From the sequence record DRR378314_17: a DNA stretch of 64,000 nt. One strand, written 5' to 3'. The position numbers and the translations under genes were made by a program. Below are positions 9,451-52,545 of the stretch, one piece after another. Under the pieces are notes generated by a model. The model saw only the letters and a program-made list of their open reading frames with translations, was not told the origin of the DNA and searched no databases. The stretch's first letter is position 1; each line of letters starts with the position of its first letter.

Positions 9451-9464
9451 GAAAAGGACCAACC

Positions 9465-19856: not shown

Positions 19857-20282
19857 ATGGCAAAACCATCAATGCCACGAGATTTAAGAAAGAAGATATT
19901 GCTTGGTGTAGCTGTTACGGCCATTCCTCTGGCCGGGTGTGATCTGATAAATGTAGATGGGTCTTCAACCGGCGGTACTTCCGCTGGCATAACAGCATCG
20001 CCTGACGAAGTTGCCGCATTTGAAGCGGCGAAATCACAGGGAACTGTTGCTTCGGTTGAACAGTTTCTTCGAAGCTACCCTGATAGCGCACTGGTGCGTA
20101 AGCTGCTTCAGGATCAGTCAACGACCACCCTCCGGCGGATCAATGAAGGTGTCGTTCGCAATCTTAGCCCCGCTGTTGTCAGCTCGCTTTCACCCCGCGT
20201 AAAACAGGCGCTTAGGTTAGACATAGATTCTGGTGCGGGTAATGAGGGGCGCAGCGGAGCTTCTGATGGTTACAGCGGCTAA
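19857..20282 (+). CDS. Small lipoprotein of unknown function with Ser/Gly-rich segments
   Basis: Lipobox LAGC, one 'FL..YP' helical repeat, and a tail ending SGASDGYSG. Confidence 0.8.
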   Translation: MAKPSMPRDLRKKILLGVAVTAIPLAGCDLINVDGSSTGGTSAGITASPDEVAAFEAAKSQGTVASVEQFLRSYPDSALVRKLLQDQSTTTLRRINEGVVRNLSPAVVSSLSPRVKQALRLDIDSGAGNEGRSGASDGYSG

Positions 20283-20299
20283 CCGTCGAACGGCAGCGC

Positions 20300-23200
20300 G
20301 TGAAACCGAGTTCCTCTTCCGCTGAAAGTAGCCACCCGGCCTCGGTTTCTATCATCGTGACCAACTATAATTATGGCCATTATCTTCAGGCGTGCCTGGA
20401 TAGCTTGCACGCCCAGACGAGCGCGCCGGACGAGATCATTGTCGTCAATGACGGATCAACCGATGGCAGTGCTGATATACTTGCGAGTCAACGGCGGGTG
20501 ACCGTAATCGATCAACCCAATGGTGGGCAAGCTGCGGCGTTCAATGCAGGGTTTGCGGCGAGCTGCGGTGAGATCGTGATGTTTGTCGATGCAGATGACA
20601 AACTTGATCCGCAGGCGATTGAGGTTGTCCGCCGGTTGTGGAGCGATGATATTTCCGCCCTGTCCTATGGGCTTCGTATGATCGATGGGCAGGGGCGGGG
20701 AATTGGCCAATATGCGATGGATTTACCAGACAGTGACTTGCTGGGCCGCATGCTCAGCCATCTGGCTATCCCGTTTATGCCTACCAGTGGGAATGCTTTT
20801 CGCCGCGACGCCATTGGTTGGGCTTTTCCTTTGCCGACCGAACGCTGGCGTATAAGTGCGGATGCGCTGCTTGTGCGGGTGGCGGTCATGGCGGCCCCGA
20901 TCCGGCAGATCCGGCAGACTCTCGGGGCATATCGGGTTCATGGTCAGAATAATTATTTTCGCAGTGGCGCCTCTGGCCCGTGGCGTGCCAATCGTGGGTT
21001 GCGCGACATTGCGCAAGCCGGGTTGGACCTGATTGCGCTGTCAGATCGGGCCGAGCGGGATTTGCCGCGTGCCCACCGCATTAAGCTGTTGTTTGCAGCC
21101 ACACGAAGCCAGATGAAAGCGGAGAATCTCATATTCGACGCACAGGCGTTAATCGGGTTTCGCAAAAAGGCGTTGACGCTTGCCCGCGGTGCGAGAATTT
21201 CGGCCAGCCTGTGGGCGTATCTGACCTGTGCCCGCTATAGCCCGACGATCCGAAAGTGGGGCATCGATCCACGCTACCAACCGCGCATTGTTGGTTTGGT
21301 TTTGGACGTGTTTCGGGGCCGTGGGCTAACCCGTGATCTGAATGAGCCTGTGGCAGTCCGCGCACCCTTTGCCACACGTCTTACGCCAGGGGTTGCGCCG
21401 CCTCAGGACCCGCTGGAATGGTTGAAGGGACCGGAATGGTCTCGCGATCACAGCACTGGGGGCGCGGATCTGAGCGCTGATGTCGGCCGGTTCACACTTG
21501 CCCGGGCATGGTCTGGTCCTGCGCGGCTTAGCTTAGAAATAGGCCCGCTTCCGGGACCACCACTGGATGTCGCGGTGTTTCACAATGGGATGCCTTTGGG
21601 TTCCGATGAAGTGAAATCGAGTGCGACGCTTGAGTTCCTGCTGCCCGAAGCATCCTCAATGCCACCACCGCCAGATGAAATCGAATTGCGGATCAGAGAT
21701 CGGATCAGTGCTCGGTTCGGGCCGTTGTCACGGGCTTGGCACAGGGCTCATCGTCTGCAGATCCATCGCATCGGGTTGAAACCAGAACCGGCCGAGCCAC
21801 CTTCAGCCGTAGTACCGGTGACCGGTTCTGCGCAAATGTCTGGGCTTGGCGATGTGGTGCAAAAGCGAAATGGACAAGTGCTGCTGGGTGAGCGGTTGAT
21901 CGGATCAGGCGAGTCGCTGTCAATTGCGATACCACCGCTGAAGCCGCCCTTTTGCCTGCAGTTGAACTTCGCGCCAAATCAGGTGCCCGGCGCGTTGACA
22001 CTCGGGTTAAACGGTACCCTCTACCACGCTGAAATCGGCCCATCGGGTCAATGTCTGATCGAGATACCCCAGACACTGGACGTTTTTCATAGCCCTGCGG
22101 TGATACGTTTCGATCTGCAACCAACCGAGTTTCTGGACGATCCGGTAGTCGCATTGCAAAGCCTGAGCTGGCTGCCCGAAGGGCCGATTGGACGCTATGG
22201 ATTGCCTGCATTGGCACCGGGCGGTTGGGCCGGCCCTGGGGCAGGGCAAGCGTTGCTGCCGTTCCTGTCAGATGGATGGCAACATGATCCGGACGGAACC
22301 GCGTTGATGCTGGGCAGCGCTGCACGACTTGTGCTTTCTCAAGCGGCGGTGGGTGCGGACGCGGTGCTGCGCCTTGATCTGGAGCCTTTAGACCCGTTGG
22401 CCCTGCGCGATAGGCTGGTGCTGGTGATCAGCGCTGATGGCACCCCTCGCACAACAGTGCAACTGACGGGTCCGGGTGTTGTTGACGTAGATCTTGGTGA
22501 ACTTCTGGCAGGTCCGCGCCACCGGATTGAAGTTGACATAATCGCAGCCACCCGTCCGCCGAACGACCAAGAGGATGAGGTCGCGGGAGATCACGGTGGA
22601 CTGCGTTTGAACCGGATTGGATTAGCAGCCGGGACCGCGCAGGTAGATGAAACTGCCAAATCTGTTCAGGCTCTACCAGATATGCATTTGGCCCGCGTTC
22701 TGACGCAGTTGCGGAAGGCATTACGGCAAGGGGCTGACAGCGGAACACTTGCGACACTCAGAGACGAGCTTTTGAAGGCAATCTCCGCGCTCAGTCCCTC
22801 GGCTGCGTTTGGGGGCCTGACCGCGGATGATTTGGAAACACTGGTTCAAGTCTCTGCGAAACTTCCGTTCCACAGACAGGAATTTAAGTCCTTGGATGGG
22901 GCCGACTGGCTGCGTGATTTGGCGCAGCGGATATTGCAGGGCCCGGGCTTTGTTACTCTGCAGGGCGTGAAACTGACCACGCTACCCGAGTTGACGCCCG
23001 ATTTTGCCCAGGTATTCGGTCGCTATCTTGTCGCCGATCCGGTTGCGGGGACCTCGAAATTAGATTTGCAGACTTATCAGGAACATCTGGTATCGGTGCT
23101 GGCTCAGGCACGCGCCGCTATTGCCAGCAGTCCCGAAGACAGCCCGCTCGGTCACCTGGCGGATCACATCGTCACCTCTTTCGAAGCCCGACAATTACTG

Positions 23201-25090
23201 TTCAGCGACCTGCCGCTGCGACCCCATGTTCAGGGGTTTGCACATGCGCTTGAAGCCAAATTGCTGCGTGCAGGGTTCGATCTGTTTGCTCCGCAAGCCA
23301 GCCAATTCGGAGCACGCCGTGGTCCGTTGAAAATTGGGGTGATCCTGCACGACACGAAACCTTCACCCGAAACCTGGATATGGCGGGCGCTGTTGCGCAA
23401 GCTTCCTGCTGATCGGGCAGAGGTGACGATGTTTCTGACCGAACAGAACGCCGCTCCTGCGTCGGGTTTCGAAGGATGCAAGGTTGTTGGCCTGGCGGGG
23501 CATTCTCTTTCGGCGACCGTGGCAGCCATACGAAGGGCGCAGATGGATGTTATAATACTGGGCGCAAACTTTTATGGTCATTGCTTCATGGCCGAAGTTT
23601 GCGCCCATCGATTGGCACCACGGCAGATTGCTTTGTCGGCCGCGTTTCCTGCGACCACGGGCTTCGCAAGTGTAGACAGCTTTGTTCTGGGTAAATCGGT
23701 TGCGCCGTCTCGTGCGTCCAAAGACTATTCTGAATCAGTATTGTGGGCCCCGGGTGCTGGGCAGGCGTTCGACATTCCACCTGCGCCCGATGTTGATGAC
23801 CAGTCGAAACAGTTGACACGCCGCCGCGTGGGTGTTGAGGACGGGTCGGTCATGCTGGTGAGCGGCGCGATGAGTGATAAGATTGGGGCAGAAGTCTTGC
23901 AGGTCTGGACGCAGGCGTTAGCTGCCGTGCCAGACGCAGTGCTGGTGCTTTATCCTTTTGCCGAAAGTTGGCAGCAGACATATGATACCTCGGCCTTTAA
24001 CGCCCGCGTGTCAGAGGCCTGCAGGGCCTCGGATATTGATCCGCAACGCATTCGCATTTTGCCACCGATCCCGAATATCGAGGTCAAGCAGGTGTTGGCT
24101 GCTGCAGACCTTTATCTGGACAGTTTCCCTTATTCCGGGGCCACGACGACGGTCGAAGCCCTGCAGTGCAACCTGCCGGTTGTTGCGATGAAAGGCACCA
24201 CTCAGCGCGGTCAACAGGCGGCGGGATGGCTGTCAGAATTCGGGCTTGATGATTTGATTGCCACGTCGCGCCGCGCCTATGTCGAGATTGTAGCCGGTAT
24301 TGCGAGCGATCCTGCACGATTGTCCGCGGTTCGAGACCGGATCGCAGAAAACCGGGATGCGGCGATGGCGCAACATGAATTCGCGAAATGGTTCGAGGAT
24401 TTGCTTCTGCCTCGATCTCAGACTGGGTCGGAGCCGCATTACTTGTTTCACCACATGCCAAAAACCGGGGGCACCAGCCTGAAACGGATTTTCGGCAGTT
24501 GGTTTGATTTGGTCGAGGATTATCGCGCACCCTGGGCCTACATCATGCCACCCAAATTAGATCTGGAAACACTTGGCCCAAACGCCATGCTGTGTGGTCA
24601 CTTTGCTGCCGATCGGGCGCCACTGCTGGAAAGGTATCCACAAACCGCTGAACCTGATCGATGGCGCAAAATCACTTTTCTGCGCGATCCGCTAGAGCGG
24701 GCGATTTCGATTCACGCTTACGAAAAGAAACTGCGGCTAGAATATGATCAGACCTATGAACCTCTTCCGTTGGGAGAGTATCTGCGCAGCAATGAGGGAA
24801 TCTTTCTGACGCATTTCGAGTGCGATGAAAGCGACTGGCAAAAGGCATTGGACAGTTATTGGTTTATCGGCACATTGGAACGGATGCCCGAGTGTCTGAA
24901 CTATCTGGCCGCCGCATTGGGTAAATCTGGCCCCGATTTGTTGCCGCATGACAATGCGAGCCCGCGTACCGAAAAGGTCACCGATGAAGATATTGCCAGC
25001 TTCCGCGCCAACAACGCGATCGAGTTTGAGATTTACGACGCTGTAGCCGCGCGGTTGGATGTGTTATTGACCGAGCATTCGGGCGATTAG
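20300..25090 (+). CDS. 1596-aa multidomain enzyme: GT2, central beta-rich region, GT41 (OGT/SPINDLY/HMW1C-like), sulfotransferase
   Basis: GT2: VSIIVTNYNY, NDGSTD, FVDADD. GT41: RLAPRQ, PATTG, DLYLDSFPYSGATTTVEAL..LPVV. Sulfotransferase: HHMPKTGGTS and FLRDPLERAIS. Confidence 0.88.
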   Translation: MKPSSSSAESSHPASVSIIVTNYNYGHYLQACLDSLHAQTSAPDEIIVVNDGSTDGSADILASQRRVTVIDQPNGGQAAAFNAGFAASCGEIVMFVDADDKLDPQAIEVVRRLWSDDISALSYGLRMIDGQGRGIGQYAMDLPDSDLLGRMLSHLAIPFMPTSGNAFRRDAIGWAFPLPTERWRISADALLVRVAVMAAPIRQIRQTLGAYRVHGQNNYFRSGASGPWRANRGLRDIAQAGLDLIALSDRAERDLPRAHRIKLLFAATRSQMKAENLIFDAQALIGFRKKALTLARGARISASLWAYLTCARYSPTIRKWGIDPRYQPRIVGLVLDVFRGRGLTRDLNEPVAVRAPFATRLTPGVAPPQDPLEWLKGPEWSRDHSTGGADLSADVGRFTLARAWSGPARLSLEIGPLPGPPLDVAVFHNGMPLGSDEVKSSATLEFLLPEASSMPPPPDEIELRIRDRISARFGPLSRAWHRAHRLQIHRIGLKPEPAEPPSAVVPVTGSAQMSGLGDVVQKRNGQVLLGERLIGSGESLSIAIPPLKPPFCLQLNFAPNQVPGALTLGLNGTLYHAEIGPSGQCLIEIPQTLDVFHSPAVIRFDLQPTEFLDDPVVALQSLSWLPEGPIGRYGLPALAPGGWAGPGAGQALLPFLSDGWQHDPDGTALMLGSAARLVLSQAAVGADAVLRLDLEPLDPLALRDRLVLVISADGTPRTTVQLTGPGVVDVDLGELLAGPRHRIEVDIIAATRPPNDQEDEVAGDHGGLRLNRIGLAAGTAQVDETAKSVQALPDMHLARVLTQLRKALRQGADSGTLATLRDELLKAISALSPSAAFGGLTADDLETLVQVSAKLPFHRQEFKSLDGADWLRDLAQRILQGPGFVTLQGVKLTTLPELTPDFAQVFGRYLVADPVAGTSKLDLQTYQEHLVSVLAQARAAIASSPEDSPLGHLADHIVTSFEARQLLFSDLPLRPHVQGFAHALEAKLLRAGFDLFAPQASQFGARRGPLKIGVILHDTKPSPETWIWRALLRKLPADRAEVTMFLTEQNAAPASGFEGCKVVGLAGHSLSATVAAIRRAQMDVIILGANFYGHCFMAEVCAHRLAPRQIALSAAFPATTGFASVDSFVLGKSVAPSRASKDYSESVLWAPGAGQAFDIPPAPDVDDQSKQLTRRRVGVEDGSVMLVSGAMSDKIGAEVLQVWTQALAAVPDAVLVLYPFAESWQQTYDTSAFNARVSEACRASDIDPQRIRILPPIPNIEVKQVLAAADLYLDSFPYSGATTTVEALQCNLPVVAMKGTTQRGQQAAGWLSEFGLDDLIATSRRAYVEIVAGIASDPARLSAVRDRIAENRDAAMAQHEFAKWFEDLLLPRSQTGSEPHYLFHHMPKTGGTSLKRIFGSWFDLVEDYRAPWAYIMPPKLDLETLGPNAMLCGHFAADRAPLLERYPQTAEPDRWRKITFLRDPLERAISIHAYEKKLRLEYDQTYEPLPLGEYLRSNEGIFLTHFECDESDWQKALDSYWFIGTLERMPECLNYLAAALGKSGPDLLPHDNASPRTEKVTDEDIASFRANNAIEFEIYDAVAARLDVLLTEHSGD

Positions 25091-26119
25091 ATCATGGGCC
25101 GAATAACGCGGGGCCCAGCCAGGGTAATCAGCCTGAAACGCGCGCGTGTCCGATATCCACCATCGATGATCCCCATACCTAGGATCAGGATTATTCTGAC
25201 GCGGAACCTCGCGACCTAGCAGGTCCTGTGCGATGTCCAGCGCCTCGATTACCGAAACCGAACTGTTGCGCCCGCCACCGATGTTATAGACGCCCAGTTG
25301 CTTGTCCCCCTGAACCACACGCACAAAGGCCTCGGCCAGATCGTCGGCATGCAGATTGTCGCGCACTTGCTTGCCGCCATTACCAATCACCTCGTAGGTA
25401 TCGCCGCGCAGAGCCGAGCGGCAAAGGTAGGACAGGAACCCATGCGCTTTGGCACCGCTATGATCTTCACCAGTCAGGCAGCCGGCCCGAAACACCGCCG
25501 CTTTCAGACCAAATCGAGTGGCATATTCCTGAACCATCAAATCAGCAGCAACTTTTGACACACCAAATAGGCTGTGCTGGGTTTGGTCGATTGACATGGT
25601 CTCATCTATGCCATGCGCGTAATACGGGTGATCCGGCGATGGCTCCAACCTACTGGCATGTTCCTGCAAAGGCAGCAGGTTGGGACGCGCTCCATAAACC
25701 TTGTTGGTCGAGGTGAACAGAAACGCAGCGCTCGGGGCAAAGAAACGGCAGGCCTCTAGAAGGTTCAGGGTCGCCGTGGCGTTGATGGTGAAATCAGTAG
25801 TGGGATCGCCGGCAGCCCAATCATGCGAGGGTTGCGCAGCCGCATGGACCACCACGGCAAGTTCCCCGCCGATTTGCCGGAACAAGGCGTGGATCGCGTC
25901 GTTGTCGCGAATGTCCAGATCGTGGTGTACATAGCCAGGGCAGTCAGCCGCAAGCACCGACTGCTTGCCCGCGTTGCTGGCGGCATCGCCAAACAGAACC
26001 CGCCGCATGTCATTGTCGATGCCGATGACTTCAAATCCCAGCGTGGCAAAACGGCGAACAGCAGCTGCCCCGACTAGTCCCAGCGATCCGGTCACAAGGG
26101 CCAGGCTTTTTGTGGTCAC
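25064..26119 (-). CDS. NAD-dependent nucleotide-sugar epimerase/dehydratase (CDP-paratose 2-epimerase-like SDR)
   Basis: Motifs TGSLGLVG, HAAAQPSHDWA, STNKVYG, SLFGVSK and GKQVRD; convergent 27-nt overlap with the GT gene. Confidence 0.85.
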   Translation of the reverse strand: MTTKSLALVTGSLGLVGAAAVRRFATLGFEVIGIDNDMRRVLFGDAASNAGKQSVLAADCPGYVHHDLDIRDNDAIHALFRQIGGELAVVVHAAAQPSHDWAAGDPTTDFTINATATLNLLEACRFFAPSAAFLFTSTNKVYGARPNLLPLQEHASRLEPSPDHPYYAHGIDETMSIDQTQHSLFGVSKVAADLMVQEYATRFGLKAAVFRAGCLTGEDHSGAKAHGFLSYLCRSALRGDTYEVIGNGGKQVRDNLHADDLAEAFVRVVQGDKQLGVYNIGGGRNSSVSVIEALDIAQDLLGREVPRQNNPDPRYGDHRWWISDTRAFQADYPGWAPRYSAHDLIARMLGQ

Positions 26120-26246
26120 GCACAGGGTCTCCGGCTGGTTTGGGATATGCGGAAAATCCCATATCCTTATCGCAAAACGTAACGATATCGCGTATAAGGA
26201 ACAAGCTTATTTAAGGTTTCACAATTGCTCAGCTCTTCGGTTTCAG

Positions 26247-28034
26247 ATGGTGCGGCTTAGAATTTTCATAACGACAGCGCTGTTTTTTTTGGTGCTGGCG
26301 GCCACGGGGTTGGCTCAGTCTGCCGGGCCGGGGAATGGAAAACGCGTGGCTTTTGTGGTCGGAAATTCGGCCTATCAAGGTCGTTTGGGAGAGTTGCGTA
26401 ATCCCGTCAATGACGCCACAGATATTGCCGCTAGGCTTGAGCAACTAGGATTTGAGGTCATTCTTGCCACCGACCTGAGTTTGCGCGCCTTTCGGGCATC
26501 ATTGCTGAATTTTGCCACCGCAATCGAAGGTGCTGAAACCTCGTTATTCTTCTATGCGGGGCATGGTGTGCAGGTGAATGACGAAAACCACCTGATACCG
26601 GTGGATGCGCGGATTGATCGGGACCGCAATCTGTCGGATGAGACAATCACCGTGAACCGGATCGTGGGTCTGATGAACCAGTTCACCGAAACTTCGATTG
26701 TTCTATTGGATGCCTGTCGTGACAATCCGCTGACCAGCGACATACCCATCGGTGGGCAGGTCGATGGGTTTGGCCGTGGTCTGGCCAGGGTCAGGGCAGA
26801 TGGAGGGTCCTACATCGCCTTTGCCACAGCACCCGGCAATGTCGCCTATGACGGAGAAGGGCGGAACAGCCCGTTTACCACTGCTTTGCTGAATCACATC
26901 GCAACACCCAATATCGACATTCGCCTGATGATGGCTGATGTACGGCGCGATGTATTCGCCGCTACGCAGCAAAGGCAATTGCCGTGGGAGAATAACTCAC
27001 TGATTGGGCGGTTCTTCTTCGACGAAAACAGTGCATTGCAACGCCTGGACAGCAATGCCCGCAGCGAGGTTGAGGCCTGGCAGGCGATTGCGAACTCAAA
27101 TCAGCGCGAAGACTATGCCGCCTTTTTGCAGGCTTTCCCTGATGGTAATTTTGCTTCGGTCGCCAGCCTGAAGATCGGGGCGCTTGAACAGGCAGAGGAA
27201 CGCGCAAGCGCTGCGCAGTCGGCCTTTGTACTTGCGCGCGCCACCAACACAGAGGACCAGTGGAACAATTTTCTTGAAACCTTCCCCGAAGGGATTCTGG
27301 CAGATATTGCGCGCGAGGAATTGCAGGACCTTCAAGACGATCTGGAACGCAACCGTATGACGCTGGAGGAAATTCACTGGCGCTCGATTGAACCGTCGCG
27401 CTCAGCTCCGGATTTCCGGATGTTCCTTTCACTTTATCCCAACGGAGAGTTCTCTGATCTTGCCGAGCAACGTCTGGAAGCGACCCTGCGCGCAGAAGAG
27501 ATCGTTGGTGCATTGACCGATGGCGCATCACCCGAAGACGTCAGCGATGTGCGGCTTGAACGCGAGATAAAGCGCAAGGTAACGCAGATACCGGTGCAGT
27601 TCATCCAATACGGATTGAATGCGCTCGGGCATCAGGTGACCGATATTTCCGGTGTACTGGATGCACCCACACGTCGGGCTGTCCGCAATTATCAGGCGAC
27701 GATCGGTGCAACGCAATCGGGCCGGCTGACACCACAGCAAATCGTTGATCTATTGCTGTCGGCCGCAGCGTTGGGTGACAGCCATGCACTGACAGCGACG
27801 GGGATCATGCTGACCTCGGGGCAGGGGTTGCGCAAGAATGAGGAGATGGCGCGCCAATGGCTGGACCGAGCCGCGGATCAGGGCAATGGGCTGGCGATGG
27901 CCAATCTGGGGATCCTGTATCGCGACGGGCTGGGGGGCGAACGTGATCTGTCTAAGGCCCGGTCATTGTTGACGGTTGCGGTGACTCTGGGGGTCGAAGG
28001 GGCCGAGCCTGTATTACGGAGCCTTGGGAATTGA
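26247..28034 (+). CDS. Exported caspase-family (peptidase C14) protein with helical repeats, a peptidoglycan-binding domain and Sel1 repeats
   Basis: Signal peptide; LRNPVNDA; dyad FFYAGHG and LLDACRDNP; IQYGLNALG...TRRAVRNYQ (PG_binding_1-like); WLDRAADQGN..AMANLGILYRDGLG (Sel1). Confidence 0.9.
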   Translation: MVRLRIFITTALFFLVLAATGLAQSAGPGNGKRVAFVVGNSAYQGRLGELRNPVNDATDIAARLEQLGFEVILATDLSLRAFRASLLNFATAIEGAETSLFFYAGHGVQVNDENHLIPVDARIDRDRNLSDETITVNRIVGLMNQFTETSIVLLDACRDNPLTSDIPIGGQVDGFGRGLARVRADGGSYIAFATAPGNVAYDGEGRNSPFTTALLNHIATPNIDIRLMMADVRRDVFAATQQRQLPWENNSLIGRFFFDENSALQRLDSNARSEVEAWQAIANSNQREDYAAFLQAFPDGNFASVASLKIGALEQAEERASAAQSAFVLARATNTEDQWNNFLETFPEGILADIAREELQDLQDDLERNRMTLEEIHWRSIEPSRSAPDFRMFLSLYPNGEFSDLAEQRLEATLRAEEIVGALTDGASPEDVSDVRLEREIKRKVTQIPVQFIQYGLNALGHQVTDISGVLDAPTRRAVRNYQATIGATQSGRLTPQQIVDLLLSAAALGDSHALTATGIMLTSGQGLRKNEEMARQWLDRAADQGNGLAMANLGILYRDGLGGERDLSKARSLLTVAVTLGVEGAEPVLRSLGN

Positions 28035-28729
28035 GGGCGCTGTTGATCCTGCTTGTCGGGGTGTTGCCCGTACCTGCCACTGCACAATTGCTGTTGCCGA
28101 CGCCCGAGTTGAGGGTGGAAAAAGACTGTGACATCTGCCCCGAAATGGTGATCCTTCCCGATGGTCTGTATATGAGCCGCGCGCCCGTGATGGTCGAAGA
28201 GTTTTGGGCTTATGTTCAGGAAACTGGCTATAAAAACGACGGCTGGGGCTGCAAATGGAATTTTCCGGGCTTTGAGCAAGGGCCGCGCCATCCGGCAACT
28301 TGCATCACCTATGAGGGCGCTCAGATTTACGCCGATTGGCTTCGTTCGAAAACCGGCAAACCCTATCGTTTGCCGACCGCCGAAGAGCTAACTTATGCGG
28401 TGATGGCCTCCGAAACTACAAACTACTGGTGGGGTCAGCAGATCGGTCGGGACCGCGCAACCTGTCTGGGATGTGGTCGTGCTATGGACGCGGTGGGTAC
28501 GACGCCGGTGGATTTGCACGAGGCCAATCCGTTCAACCTGTTGGATGCGGTGGGCAATGTCTGGATTTGGACCAGCGATTGCAACTCTGCCACCTGTGAA
28601 GAGCGCATTTTGTTGAGCGGAGGGTGGTCGAGCCCGCCGTCGGATCTGCGGATGAGTAAACGCGTGTTCAACGGTGTAAGCGTACCTTTCAATACATATG
28701 GCATCCGGGTGGTGAGGGATTTCGAATGA
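28031..28729 (+). CDS. FGE-sulfatase (SUMF1)-fold exported protein, TagR-like
   Basis: Motifs DCDICPEMV, HPATCI, YRLPTAEE, NPFNLLDAVGNVWIW and GIRVVRD; overlaps the caspase stop. Confidence 0.85.
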   Translation: MRALLILLVGVLPVPATAQLLLPTPELRVEKDCDICPEMVILPDGLYMSRAPVMVEEFWAYVQETGYKNDGWGCKWNFPGFEQGPRHPATCITYEGAQIYADWLRSKTGKPYRLPTAEELTYAVMASETTNYWWGQQIGRDRATCLGCGRAMDAVGTTPVDLHEANPFNLLDAVGNVWIWTSDCNSATCEERILLSGGWSSPPSDLRMSKRVFNGVSVPFNTYGIRVVRDFE

Positions 28730-29511
28730 TTGACGTAAGAATGCTATGGGCCGTTTTATTGTTCTGCCTGATGGGGGGCGCCGCCTGGGCACAGGTCGCA
28801 GGCGAGGTCTTCGCCGATTGCGATGGCTGCCCCGAGATGATCCTGCTCGACGATGGTACTGCCATCGGCGCAACTCTGGTCACCCGTGCGCAATTCGCCG
28901 ATTTCGCGGCTGAATCTGAAATACCGGGCACCGAAAGCTGTTTCATCCGTATCGCAAAGCGATGGAAGAACACGCCCGGCAAAGGCTGGTCAGATCCGGG
29001 TTTTGAACAAGGCCCGGATCATCCTGCGGTTTGTATGAACTGGCTTGAAGCCACGGCGTACGCCGACTGGCTAAGTGAGAAGACAGGGCAGTATTACCGC
29101 CTGCCAACCTTTGAGGAATCTATGGCGACCACGGCGGCAGGGGCGGACACGGCCTATTGGTGGGGAGATGATTTTTCAGAGGTCTGTACCCGCGCCAATG
29201 CCGCCGATGCCAATTTCAAAGCGGCGTTTCCCGAAGATGGGCGCAAAATTCTGACGTGTGATGACGGATATGCGTATACCTCACCAGTCAAGGCCTACCC
29301 GCCCAATCCATTGGGGCTTTATGATGCGGTGGGCAATGTCTGGCAGTGGACCAATACCTGTCTCAAGGGCGATTGCTCGAACGCGCTGTTTCGCGGTGCT
29401 TCCTGGGTTGTTCCAGCGCAAAACCACTTTCGCAATGACGGGCAATGGGCTGATCGGATCATTCTGCGCAACTCGGCCGTAGGCTTTCGCGTCCTGCGGG
29501 ACGTGCAGTAG
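28726..29511 (+). CDS. Second FGE-sulfatase-fold exported protein, TagR-like
   Basis: Signal peptide; [36 protein letters not shown] and GFRVLRD. Confidence 0.85.
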
Positions 29512-29515
29512 CCAG

Positions 29516-30472
29516 ATGTCGCACACCAGAGATAGCAGCAAGAAAATACTCGTTACCGGCGGTGCGGGATTTATTGGCTCACATCTGGTGGATCGATTGC
29601 TGGCGCAGGGTCACGATGTGTTGTGTGTCGACAACCTGTTTACCGGATCTAAGCGTAACATTGCACATCTACATTCGAATCCGAATTTCGAATTCATGCG
29701 CCATGATGTTACCTTGCCGCTGTATGTCGAAGTGGATGACATCTACAATCTGGCATGCCCAGCTTCGCCTGTACATTACCAGCACGACCCGGTTCAGACG
29801 GTCAAGACGTCGGTGCACGGGGCGATCAATATGCTGGGGTTGGCAAAACGATTGAATGCGCGGATATTTCAGGCCTCGACCTCCGAGGTTTATGGGGACC
29901 CCGAGACTGCAGAACAGTGCGAAGAGTATTGGGGCAATGTCAATCCAATCGGGCCGCGATCTTGTTATGACGAGGGGAAGCGCTGTGCAGAGACATTGTT
30001 TTTCGACTATAATCGGCAACATGGGTTGGACATAAAGGTAGCCCGAATTTTTAATACTTATGGCCCCAACATGCATCCATCAGACGGGCGGGTGGTTTCG
30101 AATTTCATAACGCGCGCGCTGACCAGTCAGCCCCTGATCATCCATGGCGACGGAAGCTATAGCCGATCATTCTGTTATGTGGATGACCTTGTCGACGGTA
30201 TTTTGGCATTGATGGAAACCGATACAGGGGTGACGGGGCCGATCAATCTTGGCAACCGACAAGAGATCACGATCCTGCAACTTGCGGAGCATGTGTTGCG
30301 ATTAACTGGATCATCTTCAAAGATCGAATTTCAGGACCGCGCGCCCGATGATCCCAAACGTCGTTGCCCGGATCTTACCCGTGCGCGGGCAGTGTTGGAC
30401 TGGGCGCCACGGATAGATCTTGATGAAGGTTTGTCGCGGACAATAATGTATTTTCGGAAAAACCCGAGTTGA
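29516..30472 (+). CDS. uxs: UDP-glucuronate decarboxylase (UDP-xylose synthase)
   Basis: Motifs [41 protein letters not shown] and RIFNTYGP. Confidence 0.92.
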
Positions 30473-30483
30473 AATTCTGGCCG

Positions 30484-31224
30484 TCAGCTTAGTGCCTGAA
30501 ACTCTACACGTCTGTTTTCTTCGGCTTTCGTGTCATTGGTGTTGACCGGAAAGCGTTCCCCCATGCCAACAGTTTCCAGACGCTGGGGTGTGATGCCGCA
30601 ATCCTGTACCAGATAGCGGGCGACTTCTTTTGCGCGCAGAACTGACAGTCGCTGATTGTATTCATCCGACCCGGATGTGTCGGTATGGCCGATGATGCGA
30701 AATTGCTCGATCGGGCTGGTCTGCATGGCAGTGCACATTGTCGACAACTTGGTCTTCTGGCTTTGATCCAGCGCAGCGGAATCATAGCCAAACTTGATCT
30801 GCAGATTGATCTGTAATTCGGTGTCGAGCTTGGCATAGACCAGAGGTTTGTTTGGGTCGACCACGCCGGAGACTTGAGTGGTGTTAGATGTTGCCGCGGT
30901 ATCGGCGTCCGGCGTGCTGGTATCTGGTGTTGTGGTTGCCGTTTCGACCGTAGGTGCAGTTGTGGTTTGAACCGGTGCGATGGCCGCAAGGCTTTCCGGG
31001 CTCACGGCTTCGGCCTGAATATCCTCGACCGTAACCAAAGATACACCGCGCGCTTTTGAACTGCCATCGAGCGAGCGCGTCAGCGGTTGGTTCTGGACCT
31101 CGATTTGACGGTTGAATATCCTGTTTATCTCTTCCGGTGTCATTTCCTGAGCTGAGACCGGTAGGGTCAAAACAGTTAGGCAAACTCCGCCGATATATCC
31201 TGTCAAAAACCGCATCTGAATCAC
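30484..31224 (-). CDS. OmpA-like peptidoglycan-binding protein with a Thr-rich linker
   Basis: Signal peptide; FGYDSA, IIGHTD, YNQRLSVLRA and ENRRVEF. Confidence 0.88.
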   Translation of the reverse strand: MIQMRFLTGYIGGVCLTVLTLPVSAQEMTPEEINRIFNRQIEVQNQPLTRSLDGSSKARGVSLVTVEDIQAEAVSPESLAAIAPVQTTTAPTVETATTTPDTSTPDADTAATSNTTQVSGVVDPNKPLVYAKLDTELQINLQIKFGYDSAALDQSQKTKLSTMCTAMQTSPIEQFRIIGHTDTSGSDEYNQRLSVLRAKEVARYLVQDCGITPQRLETVGMGERFPVNTNDTKAEENRRVEFQALS

Positions 31225-31352
31225 CTGAGAAAAAAGAATTTGTGCGGTTTCGATACTAGGCTAATATCGATGAAAATTCAATTCTGACTTTTCTGCTTGT
31301 TGTTACATTGGCCCTTTGTTTTCGGGCTGCTGGACTTGGAAAAACGCTCGGC

Positions 31353-32114
31353 ATGACAGTTCCGACGACCAAAATTCCACATCCGCCGCCGCGCGCGGTA
31401 TTGCACGTCACCGGAGCGGGGCTAACCCACGCCGGATGCGTCCGTTCTGACAATGAAGATGCTGTTCTGACCGATCCCAGCGGCGTGTTGTGGGCGGTGG
31501 CCGATGGCATGGGCGGATATGGGCACGGGGATGTGGCCTCTGACATCATCACGCGCACACTTTCCGAAGTGACAGACACGATGATGGCGACACCTGCGCT
31601 GCGTAGCGGTCTTGAAGCGGCGAATGCCGAGATTCAGGCGAATGCGAAATCTAATGGCGTGCCGCCCTTCGGGGCTACTGTGGTGGCGCTCATGTTTCAG
31701 AATGGCTTGGCCAACATCGTCTGGGCCGGCGACTGCCGCGCCTATCTGATGCGACAACGTTGCCTTAGATTGCTGACGCGCGATCACACCGTAGTTCAGG
31801 GGATGGTCGATCAGGGGCTGTTGCGCGGCGAGGACAGCGCCCGACACCCAGATGCCCATATCGTCACTCGGGCCGTTGGCTACGAACCCGAGGTCGAGCT
31901 TGATGCGTTGTCTGTGCCGGTGGTCCCTGGTGATATTGTGGTGCTGTGCAGTGATGGACTGACTGCGTGTTTGGGGGATCACGACATTGCTGACCTCGTG
32001 TCGGCGGCAAACAACCCCGAGGCACTGTGCGTCGATCTGATAAGGAGTTGCCTGGAGCGTGGGGCACCGGACAATGTTTCGGTGATTTCCGTCTTCGTGC
32101 AGGAGGCGCGCTGA
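31353..32114 (+). CDS. pppA: PP2C-family Ser/Thr phosphatase (T6SS PppA-like)
   Basis: Motifs RSDNED, VADGMGG, GDCRAY, LCSDGL and DNVS; T6SS context. Confidence 0.88.
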   Translation: MTVPTTKIPHPPPRAVLHVTGAGLTHAGCVRSDNEDAVLTDPSGVLWAVADGMGGYGHGDVASDIITRTLSEVTDTMMATPALRSGLEAANAEIQANAKSNGVPPFGATVVALMFQNGLANIVWAGDCRAYLMRQRCLRLLTRDHTVVQGMVDQGLLRGEDSARHPDAHIVTRAVGYEPEVELDALSVPVVPGDIVVLCSDGLTACLGDHDIADLVSAANNPEALCVDLIRSCLERGAPDNVSVISVFVQEAR

Positions 32115-33004
32115 TGCGGCAGGGCACGCTGATTGGTCCGATCATCATTGCCATCGGCCTGATCGCAGCGGCCGTCATATTTGCGGTGGTTGGCGCGGTA
32201 TTGCAGACTGCTGATGGGGGCACTGAATTGCGTCTTGATCGCGCTGAGGGCAGGCTTGAAGAGCTAACGGCTGAGGTCAAAGACCTGCAGCAGGCACTGG
32301 ACACAGCCGAGAAAGCCATTGAGCGGCAGGAAGAAGCCGGCGCCTTGCTGGCAGCGCAAGTGCCGGCTGCGTCGTCTGGTGGTTCAACGGGTGCGACGGG
32401 GCAAGGGTTTGATTTTGATTTGACGCAGGCAATCCCGGAGATCGAGGATCACATTGCGACCGAAGAGATGACCGAGGTCATGAAACTGGCCAAGACCCGA
32501 TTCAACAAAGGTATCACGCAACCTCGCAATTCAACCATGTTGCAACTGTTGGGCCAACCACGTGGTAGCTATGGTACGACGTGTCAGGGGATCACAAACC
32601 CGTCGCTGAAAGCGCTGGTTGAAACGCGTCAGGTCGGGCCGATCCGGGTTACCCTGCTGCGGCCCGCGTTGGACTCGCTGGAACGAATATTCAACACACT
32701 TCAAGCTACTGAGCCCGACATATATGCGGCTCTGGGAACAGCGGGTGGTCTGTGTGTGCGATTGATCCGTGGTTCAAGCAGCTCAATCTCAAACCACTCC
32801 TTTGGAACTGCGATCGACATCAAGCTGCAGGGCAAGCTTGACGGGTTTGGCGATGGGGGCACGCAATTTGGCTTGCTGCTGCTGGCCGAGCTTTTCAATG
32901 CCGAAGGCTGGTACTGGGGAGCAACCTACCGACGCGAGGATTCAATGCACTTTGAAGTCGGTGAAGAGACACTGCAGCGTTGGCGAGCAGAGGGTCAGTT
33001 GTAA
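32114..33004 (+). CDS. Membrane-anchored M15-family peptidoglycan peptidase (TagX-like)
   Basis: N-terminal TM helix and coiled coil; SNHSFGTAID and DSMHFE Zn motifs; coupled to pppA. Confidence 0.8.
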   Translation: MRQGTLIGPIIIAIGLIAAAVIFAVVGAVLQTADGGTELRLDRAEGRLEELTAEVKDLQQALDTAEKAIERQEEAGALLAAQVPAASSGGSTGATGQGFDFDLTQAIPEIEDHIATEEMTEVMKLAKTRFNKGITQPRNSTMLQLLGQPRGSYGTTCQGITNPSLKALVETRQVGPIRVTLLRPALDSLERIFNTLQATEPDIYAALGTAGGLCVRLIRGSSSSISNHSFGTAIDIKLQGKLDGFGDGGTQFGLLLLAELFNAEGWYWGATYRREDSMHFEVGEETLQRWRAEGQL

Positions 33005-33007
33005 CCG

Positions 33008-35458
33008 ATGGGGCGCAGAGACGCTCAGACCGAAGCAGTCAAGCGGGTATTTGAAAAGGCCGCAGCCCCGGTGTTCGACCTGATTGACCATATGGACGAA
33101 GAGGTGCGCGCGGGCGAGACAACCCTGCTGGCGCGGGTCGAAAGTGCGTTGACCGCATTCACTAGCACTCTGGAGCGCAGCAATGTTCCGCAACCCGCGA
33201 TAGCGCCTGCGCGCCTGACGCTCGCGGCGCTGGTTGATGCGCGTGCGCGAGCGCAAAGCCGGTTGAAACTGGCCTCGTGGGGTGTGCTTGCGCAGAACCG
33301 TTTGTTCGACGGTCGCGACATGCCACTGAGCAGAATACGCGAATTCGCGGCAACCGCCCGAGAAGCCGGGCCAGAATATGCAGGTCTGGCGGAGTTTCTG
33401 GAAGATGTGGCGAAGCAGATTCAGACTGGTGGGCGCGATTTGTCTCGGTCGCAATCAAGTTGGGGGCCGTTCGCGGCGCTTAGTGTAACGGTGTTTCTTC
33501 TGGCACTGACGGGTTACGCGTGTTGGCTAGAATACCGTTTTCACACTAGGATATCTGAGAGTTTTCAGCAGGACATACAGGGACTGACGATAGCTCCTGA
33601 GATGCCAAGAGCAGAACTTGCCCAGTCGCTCTCCCAATTGTCCCGAGCACATGACCGGGTAGCGCGTGCGGCGCAGTACGCACCATTCCGAAGGGTGGTG
33701 CGCCTGCCCGGATTGGATAGTGAAACCAATGCTGAAGCAATCTACCGCGAAGCGGTCGCTACAACCGGTCCCGCTACCCTGGCCGCAGTGCTGGAGGAGG
33801 TTCTTGCAACCGAAGGCGACAGCCTCAAGCTCTATGACGCTCTGCGAGCATTTGCAGTACTCAGCGGGGATTTGGACTGGTCCTCCGCATATCTCGAAGG
33901 GTGGTTGGAGGATAATCAGAATGGTCTAGAACTGCCCGGATTTTCACGCCATGTAGCGGCGTTTCCACAGCCAGACGGCACAATTCGCCCGAGTGATACA
34001 CAAGTGTTCGATCAGGCTCGCATCTTTGCCAGCGAAACCTCCGAAGCTGACAGGGTTTGGCTGGAACTTCTGCGTGCACCGCAGACAAGGTCGTTGCCGC
34101 CATGGAACCCAGAGGTCAGTGTGCCGGGCCTGTCGGATATTCTGGTTCGCAGGTCAGGTGCTGCGATGGACACAACCCTTTCAGGCCTGTTCACGCAGGA
34201 AGGTTGGGCCTATGCGCGCGATTATGGCATCGGCGTTGCCGTGCAGGAGGCCCGAAGGCTGACACCTGCGGTTCTGGACCGAGCCCCACAACCGGTCAAT
34301 CAGACGCCGGACGATGTTCAGGTCCGGCTGCATAAGGAAACGATTGCCATTTGGACCGATTGGTTGGCCGATCTGCGCGTTGAACCGTTCGACGATCCCG
34401 ACCACGCCATTCAGGTCTCGGGAACACTGGCGCAACGCACGAACCCCTTGTCGCAAGTGTTACGTACAAGCTGGGCGCAAATGGGTGGTCAGGACCGAAG
34501 CCGAAGCTTTGACCAACAGGTCGAACTGGGCCGGATATTTGGGCCAGTGATCCAGTGGATGGATGAAGGGGGCATGGCCGAGCTCAACCAGTTGTTTTCC
34601 ACCTTGAATGTGGCGCTCAGCACGCGGCAACGTGACACTGAAAAGGGCACCGAAAAATTGGTCAGTGTCCAAGAGCGTGCGCGTACGATCAACGTGTTGC
34701 AGACCGCCCCACGGATTATCATCCAGATCGCAGAGGACGTTCTGGCGCAGGCCAATGCCGCCGCTTCGCAATCTGGCGCCGATCCGCTGATCCTGCGCTG
34801 GCAGCAAGCGATCTATCCGACCTGCCGGGCGGCTTTGGATGGTCAATTCCCTTTTGCAGACGGTTCAGATGCAACACCGTCCGACGTCACTGCACTACTC
34901 GCTCCCGGTGGCAGCCTGATGCAATTCTACAATGCGTATCTTGCGCAATTTGTCGATCAGTCCGCACGGCCCTGGCGCTGGAAACCAGAGGCGCGGTTTG
35001 CCGGGCTTGACCCGGACTCGGCCGCCTTTTTCGAACGTGCAGTCTTTTTGTCCGAAGCATTGTTCGATGCGCAGGGACAATTAAGGCTTCAGATCGAAAT
35101 GGCCACGCTGGCAGAACGCGGCACAACGGTTGTTGCGCTGGGCGGGCAAGGCGTGCCCGTGCGCGCGACCGGAGAACCGGCAACCTTGACTTGGCCCGGA
35201 CCAGCGCCGCTGATGGGGGCAAGTATCAGTTTCCGTGAAGGTGTCGGAAGCGCTGATCTGACAGCTGCCGGATACTGGGGTTTGCTTCGGCTATTGGACC
35301 AGTTCCGGTTGCGGTTTCGTGATGAAGGTGCCCGCGTTCTGGTTGACATGCGCAGCAGCGAAGGACGCGCCTTTGTTGAAATGGTGTTCCCGGATGCGGC
35401 CAACCCGGTTGCCGCGCGCCGGCTGATGTCGGGCTTTTCCTGCCCGCCGCGCCTGTAA
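33008..35458 (+). CDS. Atypical IcmF/TssM-related protein without an NTPase domain, with a possible DotU-like N-terminus
   Basis: The C-terminal part parallels the tssM in this window (FPF, GGSL..F...L..FVD, PWRW, TWPGP, WGLLRL, F.CP.. terminus). There is one TM helix near aa 150 and no Walker A motif. Confidence 0.75.
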   Translation: MGRRDAQTEAVKRVFEKAAAPVFDLIDHMDEEVRAGETTLLARVESALTAFTSTLERSNVPQPAIAPARLTLAALVDARARAQSRLKLASWGVLAQNRLFDGRDMPLSRIREFAATAREAGPEYAGLAEFLEDVAKQIQTGGRDLSRSQSSWGPFAALSVTVFLLALTGYACWLEYRFHTRISESFQQDIQGLTIAPEMPRAELAQSLSQLSRAHDRVARAAQYAPFRRVVRLPGLDSETNAEAIYREAVATTGPATLAAVLEEVLATEGDSLKLYDALRAFAVLSGDLDWSSAYLEGWLEDNQNGLELPGFSRHVAAFPQPDGTIRPSDTQVFDQARIFASETSEADRVWLELLRAPQTRSLPPWNPEVSVPGLSDILVRRSGAAMDTTLSGLFTQEGWAYARDYGIGVAVQEARRLTPAVLDRAPQPVNQTPDDVQVRLHKETIAIWTDWLADLRVEPFDDPDHAIQVSGTLAQRTNPLSQVLRTSWAQMGGQDRSRSFDQQVELGRIFGPVIQWMDEGGMAELNQLFSTLNVALSTRQRDTEKGTEKLVSVQERARTINVLQTAPRIIIQIAEDVLAQANAAASQSGADPLILRWQQAIYPTCRAALDGQFPFADGSDATPSDVTALLAPGGSLMQFYNAYLAQFVDQSARPWRWKPEARFAGLDPDSAAFFERAVFLSEALFDAQGQLRLQIEMATLAERGTTVVALGGQGVPVRATGEPATLTWPGPAPLMGASISFREGVGSADLTAAGYWGLLRLLDQFRLRFRDEGARVLVDMRSSEGRAFVEMVFPDAANPVAARRLMSGFSCPPRL

Positions 35459-35544
35459 TTGCGCCGTGGGACTCTGCGCAAAGCATGGGCTGTGCTACAT
35501 TAGGGCGCAGTTTTGAAAGAGATTTTCAGGAAGTGAGTGTAGTG

Positions 35545-37852: not shown

Positions 37853-38326
37853 TCATCCAAACAGGTGGGCAAGGTATACTTCCGGGGCCGCAGGCGCGTC
37901 TTTCGCCCAAACCACTGGAGGCGCAAGCGGGTCTGCCGTCTCAGCCGGGGGGGCGATTGGCTGCAAGGTAGCAAACAGCGCATCCGGATCAAGGGCTCCG
38001 GTTTGGGCCTGATGCAGCGCTGGGCGCAGTATCGTGGCCCAGTCTTCGATCCCGGCTTGATCAGCAGCTATTACAGGGCAGCACGCCGCCAATGGAAAAT
38101 GACGCCCCGCAGCGTCATGACTGGGCAGGATTATCAAGGCCAGCTTTAGCTGTGGCCCTTCGATCAGAGCATGCAGGCCGGTTTCGGGCCAAAGCTCGGG
38201 GTTGCGCGCTGGTTGAGCAAGATGAAGAGTAAGCCAACGGTCTAACTGGGGCCGAATGCGCGGACCTAATCCCCGCGCGACGAAATCGCCGGATGCAGGC
38301 AGTTTGCCAAAGAAGCCGGTTGCCAT
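37853..38326 (-). CDS. tagF: T6SS regulator TagF
   Basis: Motifs GFFGKLPASGDFV and SHDAAGRHFPL. Confidence 0.92.
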   Translation of the reverse strand: MATGFFGKLPASGDFVARGLGPRIRPQLDRWLTLHLAQPARNPELWPETGLHALIEGPQLKLALIILPSHDAAGRHFPLAACCPVIAADQAGIEDWATILRPALHQAQTGALDPDALFATLQPIAPPAETADPLAPPVVWAKDAPAAPEVYLAHLFG

Positions 38327-38329
38327 CGA

Positions 38330-41863: not shown

Positions 41864-41865
41864 TC

Positions 41866-44558: not shown

Positions 44559-44581
44559 GCGCAGTCGGCTCCTTGTGCGGC

Positions 44582-45028: not shown

Positions 45029-45033
45029 CTCTG

Positions 45034-49953: not shown

Positions 49954-49973
49954 GCGTTGCTCGGTCCTCCTGA

Positions 49974-50453: not shown

Positions 50454-50478
50454 GGGACTACTCCTTTAAAATAAAGAA

Positions 50479-51987: not shown

Positions 51988-51989
51988 GC

Positions 51990-52526: not shown

Positions 52527-52545
52527 TTAGAACTCCTTTGAAGTT

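Follow-up and report, generated by a model that had tools for sequence, protein, structure and literature searches.

The window, a stretch of 64,000 nt from sequence record DRR378314_17 that originates from a Ruegeria species, carries a complete type VI secretion system (T6SS) from 30.5 kb to its end and, next to it, a cassette of genes for a small lipoprotein, a giant enzyme that joins glycosyltransferase (GT) families GT2 and GT41 to a sulfotransferase-like domain, a short-chain dehydrogenase/reductase (SDR), a secreted caspase-family protease, two proteins of the formylglycine-generating enzyme (FGE) fold and a UDP-glucuronate decarboxylase (UDP-xylose synthase, UXS). The cassette is defined by these gene families, by the compartments that hydrophobic segments predict for their products, by a linkage conserved among relatives and by a domain swap that sets off a distant version. 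We propose, giving the idea an even chance of being right, that it is a self-contained mobile envelope module that makes and reads a xylose glycoconjugate, placed at the regulatory end of a T6SS island and facultatively coupled to T6SS control. An earlier reading of the letters alone (the sequence-only reading) had described these genes as a glycosylation, sulfation and caspase module interleaved with T6SS regulatory genes; the T6SS link that holds is one outside that reading and belongs to the caspase family. A full-text literature search found neither a caspase–T6SS nor a caspase–GT41–UXS link, although gene tables in supplements might list such genes, and in the extract of a 2026 review of T6SS accessory genes the words 'caspase', 'glycosyltransferase' and 'sulfatase' are absent (PMC13584744). 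The cassette is undescribed in the literature searched.

Results

The cassette recurs as a unit in two versions

Scanning one genome per species with the window caspase yielded 80 loci, 8 of them with orthologues at 66–99% identity (handles beginning with L, G and C denote loci, genomes and contigs). The genes for the lipoprotein, the giant, the caspase and the two FGE-fold proteins (FGE1 and FGE2) stand in the same order in all five loci with sufficient upstream sequence (L013, L014, L016, L017 and L019), the lipoprotein gene of L017 having been identified from its open reading frame (ORF) and an alignment, not by tblastn. The SDR gene is present in five of the eight loci of this version (type 1) that cover its position (L013, L014, L015, L018 and L142). 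A metagenome scan with a profile of the giant gave 22 loci. One of them, L142, has the giant, SDR, caspase, FGE1 and FGE2 genes in the order of the window, with no lipoprotein match there, and the lipoprotein and giant genes were found together on three truncated metagenome contigs.

A distant version (type 2) was found in L145, L148 and L149 and, in part, in L147 and L152. It comprises a caspase of 983–1151 aa whose gene is transcribed divergently, a lipoprotein of the same family as that of the window, an extra GT2 protein of ~1200 aa and a giant of 1600–1660 aa, which retains the GT2, GT41 and sulfotransferase parts at 28–50% identity together with its link to the caspase and the lipoprotein. 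UXS is present in L148 and L149 (68–70% identity), and no FGE genes were found in the type-2 cassettes. There the caspase itself carries PG_binding_1 and a solute-binding protein domain (SBP_bac_1), and this SBP part matches, among solved chains, XylA (E 2.7e-72), a xylo-oligosaccharide (XOS)-binding protein (E 3.3e-31) and other xylo-oligosaccharide binders. Caspase–SBP fusions occur in 27 further clusters (28 with the query's own, with a caspase domain in 25 of the 28), in Mesorhizobium, Defluviimonas, Rhodovulum and Amaricoccus, and are annotated as solute-binding proteins. The caspases of each cassette version form one clade in a quick tree (SH-aLRT 100 and 99).

Because UXS, the glycosyltransferases and a caspase with a xylo-oligosaccharide-type reader are kept together while the giants have diverged to 28–50% identity, we take the sugar arm and the protease arm to be one system, and no other observation speaks more strongly for this or for the involvement of xylose. 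The recurrence of the glycosylation/sulfation and caspase/FGE genes in relatives thus bears out the suggestion of the sequence-only reading that they form a single module. Its idea of xylose-containing chemistry also gains ground: xylose is probably part of the chemistry of the cassette, since UXS is kept in the distant version and the caspase there has a predicted xylo-oligosaccharide-type binding domain.

A giant cytoplasmic enzyme and two sugar-nucleotide genes

The lipoprotein gene, the giant gene that follows it and the convergent SDR gene all lie where the sequence-only reading had placed them (Table 1). The giant lacks any hydrophobic segment and is predicted to be cytoplasmic. Its GT2 domain scores 102 bits, above the Pfam cut-off, and its GT41 domain (PF13844) 60.2 bits against a cut-off of 25. 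A profile of 29 sequences placed GT41 at residues 1006–1377, with SPINDLY and XcOGT matching at E 1e-36 to 1e-34 and HMW1C-like chains matching weakly (E ~1e-4). The Pfam scan found no tetratricopeptide repeat (TPR) family, the N-terminal substrate-binding array of GT41 enzymes, and residues ~250–1000 gave no match in family or profile searches.

The C-terminal domain scores 16.4 bits for Sulfotransfer_2, below the Pfam cut-off of 22, and a distant homologue of the giant gives weak Sulfotransfer_3 and Stf0 scores. An AF2 model of the C-terminal 226 aa (pLDDT 84) has a fold like that of sulfotransferases using 3'-phosphoadenosine-5'-phosphosulfate (PAPS), and all 35 Foldseek matches to this model at E<=1e-3 are sulfotransferases (TMq up to 0.63). 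The giants conserve the motifs P-K-T-G-G-T-S at 1387 and R-D-P-L-E-x-x-x-S at 1462, which we take to be the two PAPS-binding motifs. Full-length homologues form ~35 clusters. When the GT41-plus-sulfotransferase part was used as the query in a class-level sample, 9 of 401 genomes matched (a tally that includes genome G484), and beyond the GT41 domain only G001, of the genomes compared the one closest to the window (69% of sampled words in common). Separately, a caspase gene in a Rhizobiaceae metagenome-assembled genome (MAG) has, ~6 kb away, a homologue of the sulfotransferase domain (L023:16795-17412, 31% identity) with no other part of the giant.

The SDR gene overlaps the giant gene by 27 nt, and the closest solved relative of its product is CDP-tyvelose 2-epimerase (E 1.5e-32). 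UXS matches human UXS1 with 415 bits (E 1.6e-123, residues 3–316); its UDP-xylose synthase activity is a prediction. In L019 the UXS gene lies upstream of the lipoprotein gene (L019:1890-2814) and is matched as two overlapping pieces, which could reflect a frameshift or an assembly error.

A family of small lipoproteins

The 141-aa lipoprotein matched nothing in Pfam or NCBIfam and, on the basis of an alignment, founds a lipoprotein family here. In ten sequences drawn from the two cassette versions (22–50% identity), an invariant lipobox Cys and a Y-P-x-S motif recur, a tyrosine stands at the C-terminus or within three residues of it, and a basic residue lies 5–14 positions upstream of that tyrosine. 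The tail is rich in Gly, Ser and Asp and ends with this invariant tyrosine; we propose it as a candidate modified site. A profile search of 1.84 billion representatives returned 508 proteins at E<=0.001, of which 130 reach E<=1e-10. Of the 150 matches listed, 108 have fewer than 200 aa, and a Tyr occurs within the last four residues in 95 of these 108. The same search found the central motif as a multi-copy repeat in large proteins, of which 3 of the first 40 contain a caspase motif (regular expression). A BLASTP comparison of the lipoprotein with the linker repeats of the window caspase gave a weak match (E 0.01). In a class-level sample the profile matched 1 of 161 genomes and, like the query taken from the giant, revealed no further cassette, and leads from a protein atlas had low scores (<=0.78). 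Complex prediction of the lipoprotein with FGE1 and FGE2 scored 0.00, a value obtained without controls that counts neither for nor against binding.

A secreted caspase coupled to two FGE-fold proteins

The overlaps of 4 nt between the caspase and FGE1 genes and between the FGE1 and FGE2 genes, and the gap of 4 nt between FGE2 and UXS, agree with the spacing described in the sequence-only reading. The caspase start is placed at 26247, which gives a signal peptide, and not at 25965. The C14 domain is strongly supported (PF00656, 121.7 bits against a cut-off of 21.4), and the MALT1 paracaspase matches it at E 4.5e-10. His106 lies in A-G-H-G and Cys157 in D-A-C-R, motifs that we assume to hold the caspase catalytic His/Cys dyad, and the predicted dyad is intact.

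FGE1 and FGE2 score 91 and 120 bits for PF03781, and the best solved relatives of these proteins are PvdO and SUMF2. Neither protein, nor their orthologues, has any cysteine after the G-x-x-W motif in the last 30–35 residues, the region that is presumably the place of the FGE catalytic cysteine pair. The FGE proteins, being catalytically dead, could plausibly act as lectin-like readers, and the pair may work like TagR, as non-catalytic periplasmic binders. The sequence-only reading had suggested for them a possible lectin-fold role in triggering T6SS firing, and of this the binder part stands as plausible; a general TagR-like T6SS component they are not. Homologues of FGE2 (E<=1e-25) were found in 5 of 401 genomes of the family, namely three cassette carriers and two T6SS-negative genomes, and in 20 T6SS regions without the cassette neither FGE1 nor FGE2 gave a tblastn match, with coverage of >30% of the query required in one of the comparisons. 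In other phyla, FGE genes adjoin distant caspases at 10 of 72 loci.

Caspases of this family flank T6SS clusters

We took a census of homologues of the window caspase (E<=1e-35, at most three candidates scored per genome) in 401 Rhodobacteraceae genomes, one per genus, which are kin and hence not independent. Such caspases were found in 115 genomes, comprising 76 of the 103 that are T6SS-positive and 39 of the 298 that are T6SS-negative (odds ratio 18.7; Fisher p 6e-30, which is overstated because the genomes are kin). A caspase match and TssK lie 8–35 kb apart on one contig in at least 35 of the 103 T6SS-positive genomes (from the 150 caspase rows listed out of 219), compared with a rough chance expectation of ~5% for up to three genes in a 4-Mb genome. 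As to the gene-neighbourhood comparison called for by the sequence-only reading, the caspase family co-occurs with T6SS, and the tie of the cassette as a whole to T6SS is real but loose. In the quick tree, T6SS-flanking caspases are spread over at least five clades, and sister clades of the cassette caspases are T6SS-flanking; the label is a loose one, as four rows so marked lie 30–50 kb from TssK or in a genome without a TssK match.

Twelve T6SS–caspase loci, picked for this proximity, were inspected and revealed three settings. The caspase gene stands directly beside the M15, OmpA or PpkA genes, or is separated from M15 or PppA by a TpsB/TpsA pair, or is the last gene of a set located after TssA, preceded there by genes for a small protein, ExbB, two ExbD proteins and a DUF4384 protein. 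The same caspase/T6SS arrangement was found in four other Ruegeria genomes, and in G260 a caspase lies beside the OmpA gene, which is the place of the cassette in the window. In the near-identical genome G001 (contig C13, L134:924-7089), just past the right end of the window, a second caspase of 837 aa with C14, TPR, Sel1 and PG_binding_3 directly follows ppkA and is itself followed by a 1106-aa TPR/transglutaminase-like gene. Since synteny with T6SS-free relatives resumes only past these two genes, the T6SS island has caspase genes on both of its sides.

Two of these gene sets deserve description in their own right. The small secreted protein, ExbB, two ExbD proteins and membrane-anchored DUF4384 protein (L106:14196-17661, L019:11874-14815, L110 and L113, the latter two from G306 and G077) resemble a TonB-like energising set and lie at the TssA end of the T6SS or between the cassette and the T6SS, often followed by a caspase gene. 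The two-partner secretion (Tps) pair, the transporter TpsB with a 1245-aa TpsA bearing a GLUG motif, lies between the T6SS end and the caspase in L094:10466-15809 and recurs in several genera, with equivalents in G005, G306, G077 and G376; the T6SS end beside it is M15, but PppA in G306.

The periplasmic domain of the kinase PpkA follows the caspases. Among T6SS genomes, 41 of 53 with a caspase gave a match to the domain, against 0 of 27 without one, in a search that covered 80 of the 103 T6SS genomes (all 27 caspase-negative ones and the first 53 of the 76 positive ones). Residues 330–711 of PpkA (window 61814-63949) have no Pfam match and are 30–50% identical across two T6SS types. Their model (pLDDT 89.5) contains three alpha/beta repeats, with a BON-domain protein as the best match, and a beta-sandwich; as modelled, the repeats resemble BON or ring-building domains. 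An assignment of the C-terminal part of PpkA to DUF4384 was tried and dropped, since BLASTP against a DUF4384 protein was marginal (E 0.05) and Pfam gave nothing.

The cassette abuts the T6SS cluster

Rightwards of UXS come the OmpA, PppA, M15, TssM-like and VgrG genes, in the order given by the sequence-only reading. In four of four other genera with the same T6SS type (TssK 71–80% identical) this block is kept, and in none of the four is the cassette present. The block is thus a conserved T6SS end, and the cassette abuts it and is not interleaved with T6SS genes as had been claimed.

TssK was found in six of the seven other cassette genomes, compared with 103 of 401 (26%) across the family. 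Beyond the window (L013), the cassette is adjacent to a T6SS in L019, where the ExbB/ExbD/DUF4384 set stands between the two, and in L014, where 9 kb separate it from the TssA end of a T6SS of another type (TssK 31% identical). In the latter case Rep3-type initiator, ParA and ParB genes lie between T6SS and cassette (L106:17702-L107:1857, contig C20 of G042, 73 kb), and contig C20 is therefore probably a plasmid that carries both.

Table 1 Features of the window and the evidence for their assignment
Feature	Position	Strand	Basis
Small lipoprotein, 141 aa	19857..20282	+	N-terminal hydrophobic segment and L-A-G-C lipobox
Giant enzyme, 1596 aa	20300..25090	+	GT2 ~1-170, middle without assignment, GT41 ~1005-1377, PAPS-sulfotransferase-like ~1380-1596
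Extended SDR, nucleotide-sugar 2-epimerase-like	25064..26119	-	Family and structure matches
Secreted caspase-family protease, 595 aa	26247..28034	+	Signal peptide, C14, three linker repeats, PG_binding_1, Sel1
FGE-fold protein 1 (FGE1), secreted	28031..28729	+	Signal peptide; 4-nt overlap with caspase gene
FGE-fold protein 2 (FGE2), secreted	28726..29511	+	Signal peptide; closest solved relative PvdO
UDP-glucuronate decarboxylase (UXS)	29516..30472	+	Full-length match to human UXS1
OmpA-like peptidoglycan-binding protein, Thr-rich linker	30484..31224	-	First gene of conserved T6SS block
PppA (PP2C phosphatase)	31308..32114	+	Family matches
Membrane-anchored M15 peptidase (TagX-like)	32027..33004	+	Listed ORF overlaps pppA by 88 nt
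TssM paralogue, one transmembrane segment, no N-terminal IcmF domain	33008..35458	+	Adjoins M15 in 4/4 clusters of same T6SS type
VgrG	35485..37845	+	Family match
T6SS core TagF, TssM, L, K, J, Fha, TssG, F, E, Hcp, TssC, B, A	37853..53733	-	Family matches
ClpV (-) and PpkA (+)	58973..63949	mixed	PpkA with 380-aa periplasmic domain

Other genes and the flanks of the window

The true M15 start is probably near 32114, the pppA stop, because homologues align only from residue ~30. Between the T6SS core and ClpV lies an effector set (53912-58963) of a DUF6484 protein, a 301-aa protein without family, a PAAR-like GHH2 nuclease toxin protein, a 347-aa protein with a faint thiolase-like match and a DUF2169 protein; the set recurs next to caspase genes in loci of Cognatiyoonia and further Rhodobacteraceae (L038, L039 and L044) and in G168.

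The left flank is not conserved within the genus, and the window lies in a variable island. The island-boundary analysis, which is silent on joint acquisition of cassette and T6SS, puts the right edge beyond the second caspase and the TPR/transglutaminase-like gene. G+C rises from ~0.49–0.51 at 10–20 kb to ~0.58 from 20 kb on. Left of the high-G+C part, 18100-19400 has no long ORFs and the lowest G+C of the window (0.49) and is perhaps a decayed mobile element. The gene directly before that of the lipoprotein (19411-19776) is an isolated one for a glycine-cleavage H-protein-like product, and it is not at that place in other cassettes. A promoter and terminator scan gave no excess over shuffles, except for one promoter-like site with 10 of 12 positions at 19797-19826. 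Farther to the left are a MHYT-LytTR regulator gene and a CO-dehydrogenase-type cluster (1001-9917) of flavoprotein, 2Fe-2S and molybdopterin subunits followed by CoxD-, CoxE-, XdhC- and CoxG-like genes, and a PnrA-like binding protein (11778-13052), the sole match related to ATP-binding cassette (ABC) systems among the ORFs scanned.

Discussion

We suggest that the cassette is a horizontally mobile module at the regulatory end of the T6SS island. In the cytoplasm, UXS and, in the window, also the 2-epimerase-like SDR would supply sugar nucleotides, from which the giant would build a xylose-containing and probably sulfated glycoconjugate. The most likely carrier would be the dedicated small lipoprotein, with its Gly/Ser/Asp-rich tail and invariant tyrosine. 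In the periplasm, the peptidoglycan-tethered and predicted catalytically competent caspase would act with a ligand-binding part, supplied by the two dead FGE-fold proteins in the window and by the fused xylo-oligosaccharide-type domain in the distant version, and together they might recognise the product and cut it or a partner protein. Because caspases of this family repeatedly flank T6SS clusters in Rhodobacteraceae and accompany the PpkA/PppA/Fha phosphorylation pathway, the module would most likely be a periplasmic proteolytic input to T6SS control, or be deployed together with it.

A number of points weigh against this proposal. All of the evidence, including that for function, is genomic. 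The SDR and UXS genes vary between cassettes and are missing from some, and we know of no solved FGE-fold protein that binds sugar. GT41 enzymes act in the cytoplasm, and modification of the lipoprotein must therefore precede its export. As to T6SS, 39 T6SS-negative genomes also have such caspases, and the correlation between caspase and PpkA domain partly reflects T6SS subtype, that is, shared ancestry. G448, a fragmentary MAG with the cassette, gave no TssK match; of six informative type-1 loci, only three have the cassette and a T6SS side by side; in G043 and G044 the T6SS is on a contig other than that of the cassette; and no T6SS matches were found in the 5–10 kb flanks of L142 and the type-2 loci. 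Even the co-location in L014 could be merely that of a shared plasmid or island. The T6SS tie of the cassette is statistical and positional, runs mainly through the caspase family, and is facultative and loose. A view of the module as a fixed part of the T6SS fails on this adjacency record and on the flanks of the distant version.

Some of these observations speak for an autonomous module that would make and process a glycosylated lipoprotein or peptide to an end of its own, as an envelope signal, a surface decoration or a periplasmic defence sensor, and that would have no T6SS function and share only plasmids and islands with T6SS genes. FGE-like sensor domains occur in conflict systems. Besides the loci without T6SS adjacency, which include every type-2 locus, this explanation can draw on the Rep3/ParAB genes that part T6SS and cassette in G042, on the variable island in which the window lies, and on a caspase–FGE pairing that is widespread outside T6SS, in 10 of 72 distant loci and, according to the extracted text of one survey, as fusions in 33 of 671 sequences (PMC3501461). 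It does not readily account for the T6SS in six of seven other cassette genomes against 26% of the family, for the T6SS-flanking sister clades of the caspase, or for the caspase that occupies the place of the cassette beside OmpA in G260. We regard it as a serious possibility, though one that is more probably wrong than right.

A dedicated T6SS accessory, as the sequence-only reading envisaged, would place a xylose/sulfate mark on T6SS parts or the surface and trigger firing through a TagR-like FGE protein and a TagQ-like lipoprotein. FGE-fold proteins, lipoprotein, PpkA, PppA and Fha are all present, and GT41 targets cytoplasmic proteins, as T6SS parts are. TagQ/TagR are reported to act on PpkA in Pseudomonas aeruginosa (PMC13713981), and TagR is listed for Rhodobacter (PMC13584744). 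Close FGE2 homologues nevertheless occur in just 5 of 401 genomes though 103 have a T6SS, FGE matches are lacking in the 20 other T6SS regions, no ABC-type TagS/TagT was found among the window ORFs scanned, and the cassette is also found apart from T6SS. The distant version has a caspase-fused sugar-binding domain in place of the FGE proteins, which ties the latter to the caspase and the glycan and not to PpkA. Modification of T6SS parts is not supported, and we judge the dedicated accessory to be improbable.

A more specific form of our own proposal of an envelope module treats the lipoprotein as a precursor. The giant would add a xylose–sulfate chain at or near the C-terminal tyrosine, the FGE or SBP part would bind it, and the caspase would cut at the basic residue 5–14 positions upstream, with the released modified peptide, in T6SS carriers, gating PpkA-dependent firing or marking kin. 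Such a lipoprotein would be a bacterial counterpart of a proteoglycan or a sulfated signal peptide. In this full detail the scheme is a long shot.

That ordinary surface-polysaccharide genes simply lie beside unrelated caspase and FGE genes is disfavoured and highly improbable: although GT2, SDR and UXS families are common in polysaccharide loci, neither the ORFs scanned in 1–64 kb nor the flanks of related cassettes yielded a priming transferase, flippase, ABC exporter, polymerase or chain-length regulator, the linkage of giant, caspase and lipoprotein is kept at 28–50% giant identity, and the solved GT41 matches are all protein-modifying, so that the conclusion that the cassette is not a lipopolysaccharide (LPS) or exopolysaccharide (EPS) locus, the outcome that the sequence-only reading had set against its own proposal, is supported.

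Bacterial caspase homologues are abundant, and their frequent pairing with the FGE fold has been noted since 2012. We know of almost no bacterial caspase homologue with a known substrate or role. The cassette offers candidates for three roles: the lipoprotein as substrate, xylose and sulfate as modification, and either the FGE pair or the xylo-oligosaccharide-type domain as reader. In addition, ~400 Rhodobacteraceae genera reveal a strong statistical and positional link of periplasmic caspases with T6SS and the PpkA pathway. Should this link prove functional, caspases would join the T6SS accessory factors as a new class and would give the T6SS of marine roseobacters an unexpected layer of proteolytic control.

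Comparison with known systems

One likeness is to the TagQ/TagR(/TagS/TagT)–PpkA pathway of the Pseudomonas aeruginosa H1-T6SS, which likewise combines PpkA, PppA and Fha with a lipoprotein and with an envelope protein of the FGE fold that lacks FGE chemistry, and which suggests a possible shared role upstream of the kinase; the likeness is one of description, not of a sequence comparison with TagR or TagQ. The TagQ/TagR complex is described as acting on PpkA in P. aeruginosa (PMC13713981, 2026), and TagR is listed for Pseudomonas and Rhodobacter (PMC13584744). FGE1 and FGE2 have the TagR-type feature of a periplasmic FGE-fold protein lacking FGE chemistry, and PpkA, PppA and an FHA protein are all in the window cluster. 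Two further features are absent, in that no ABC ATPase or permease family was found among the window ORFs scanned for TagS/TagT, and FGE is not a regular member of T6SS clusters, for which reason filing the pair as TagR fails. Unlike TagQ/TagR, the system described here has two FGE paralogues translationally coupled to a caspase, a giant glycosyl/sulfotransferase and UXS; it also occurs away from T6SS, and FGE is not general in the T6SS of the family.

Orthocaspase/metacaspase–FGE-sulfatase fusions (PMC3501461) share with the cassette a C14 domain with an intact dyad and the FGE fold, and Sel1 and peptidoglycan-binding partners are common among them. Here, by contrast, the FGE parts are separate secreted proteins, in a cassette with a lipoprotein, a GT2-GT41-sulfotransferase and UXS. 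In the extract of that paper the string 'glycosyl' is absent and no T6SS link is drawn.

TagX, the M15 cell-wall endopeptidase of the Acinetobacter T6SS, resembles the neighbouring M15 peptidase, which is membrane-anchored and conserved in T6SS clusters and is usually adjoined by the caspases. This likeness is one of a neighbour gene, not of the cassette, and the caspase, as a cysteine protease, would act on proteins and not on peptidoglycan. HMW1C-like N-glycosyltransferases with their HMW1-type adhesins also place a cytoplasmic GT41 enzyme beside a Sec-exported protein that can be modified before export. In the cassette the closest solved GT41 relatives are instead SPINDLY and XcOGT, the domain is fused to GT2 and a sulfotransferase, and a 141-aa lipoprotein takes the place of the large adhesin as candidate substrate.

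In the RaxST/RaxX system, a sulfotransferase is encoded beside a small exported tyrosine-sulfated peptide, and animal proteoglycans are xylose-initiated and sulfated and depend on a supply of UDP-xylose. The lipoprotein of the cassette, a small exported protein with an acidic Gly/Ser-rich tail and a conserved tyrosine, has a likeness in design to RaxX and to proteoglycans, with no homology implied, and the cassette differs from both in adding a caspase and a ligand-binding part.

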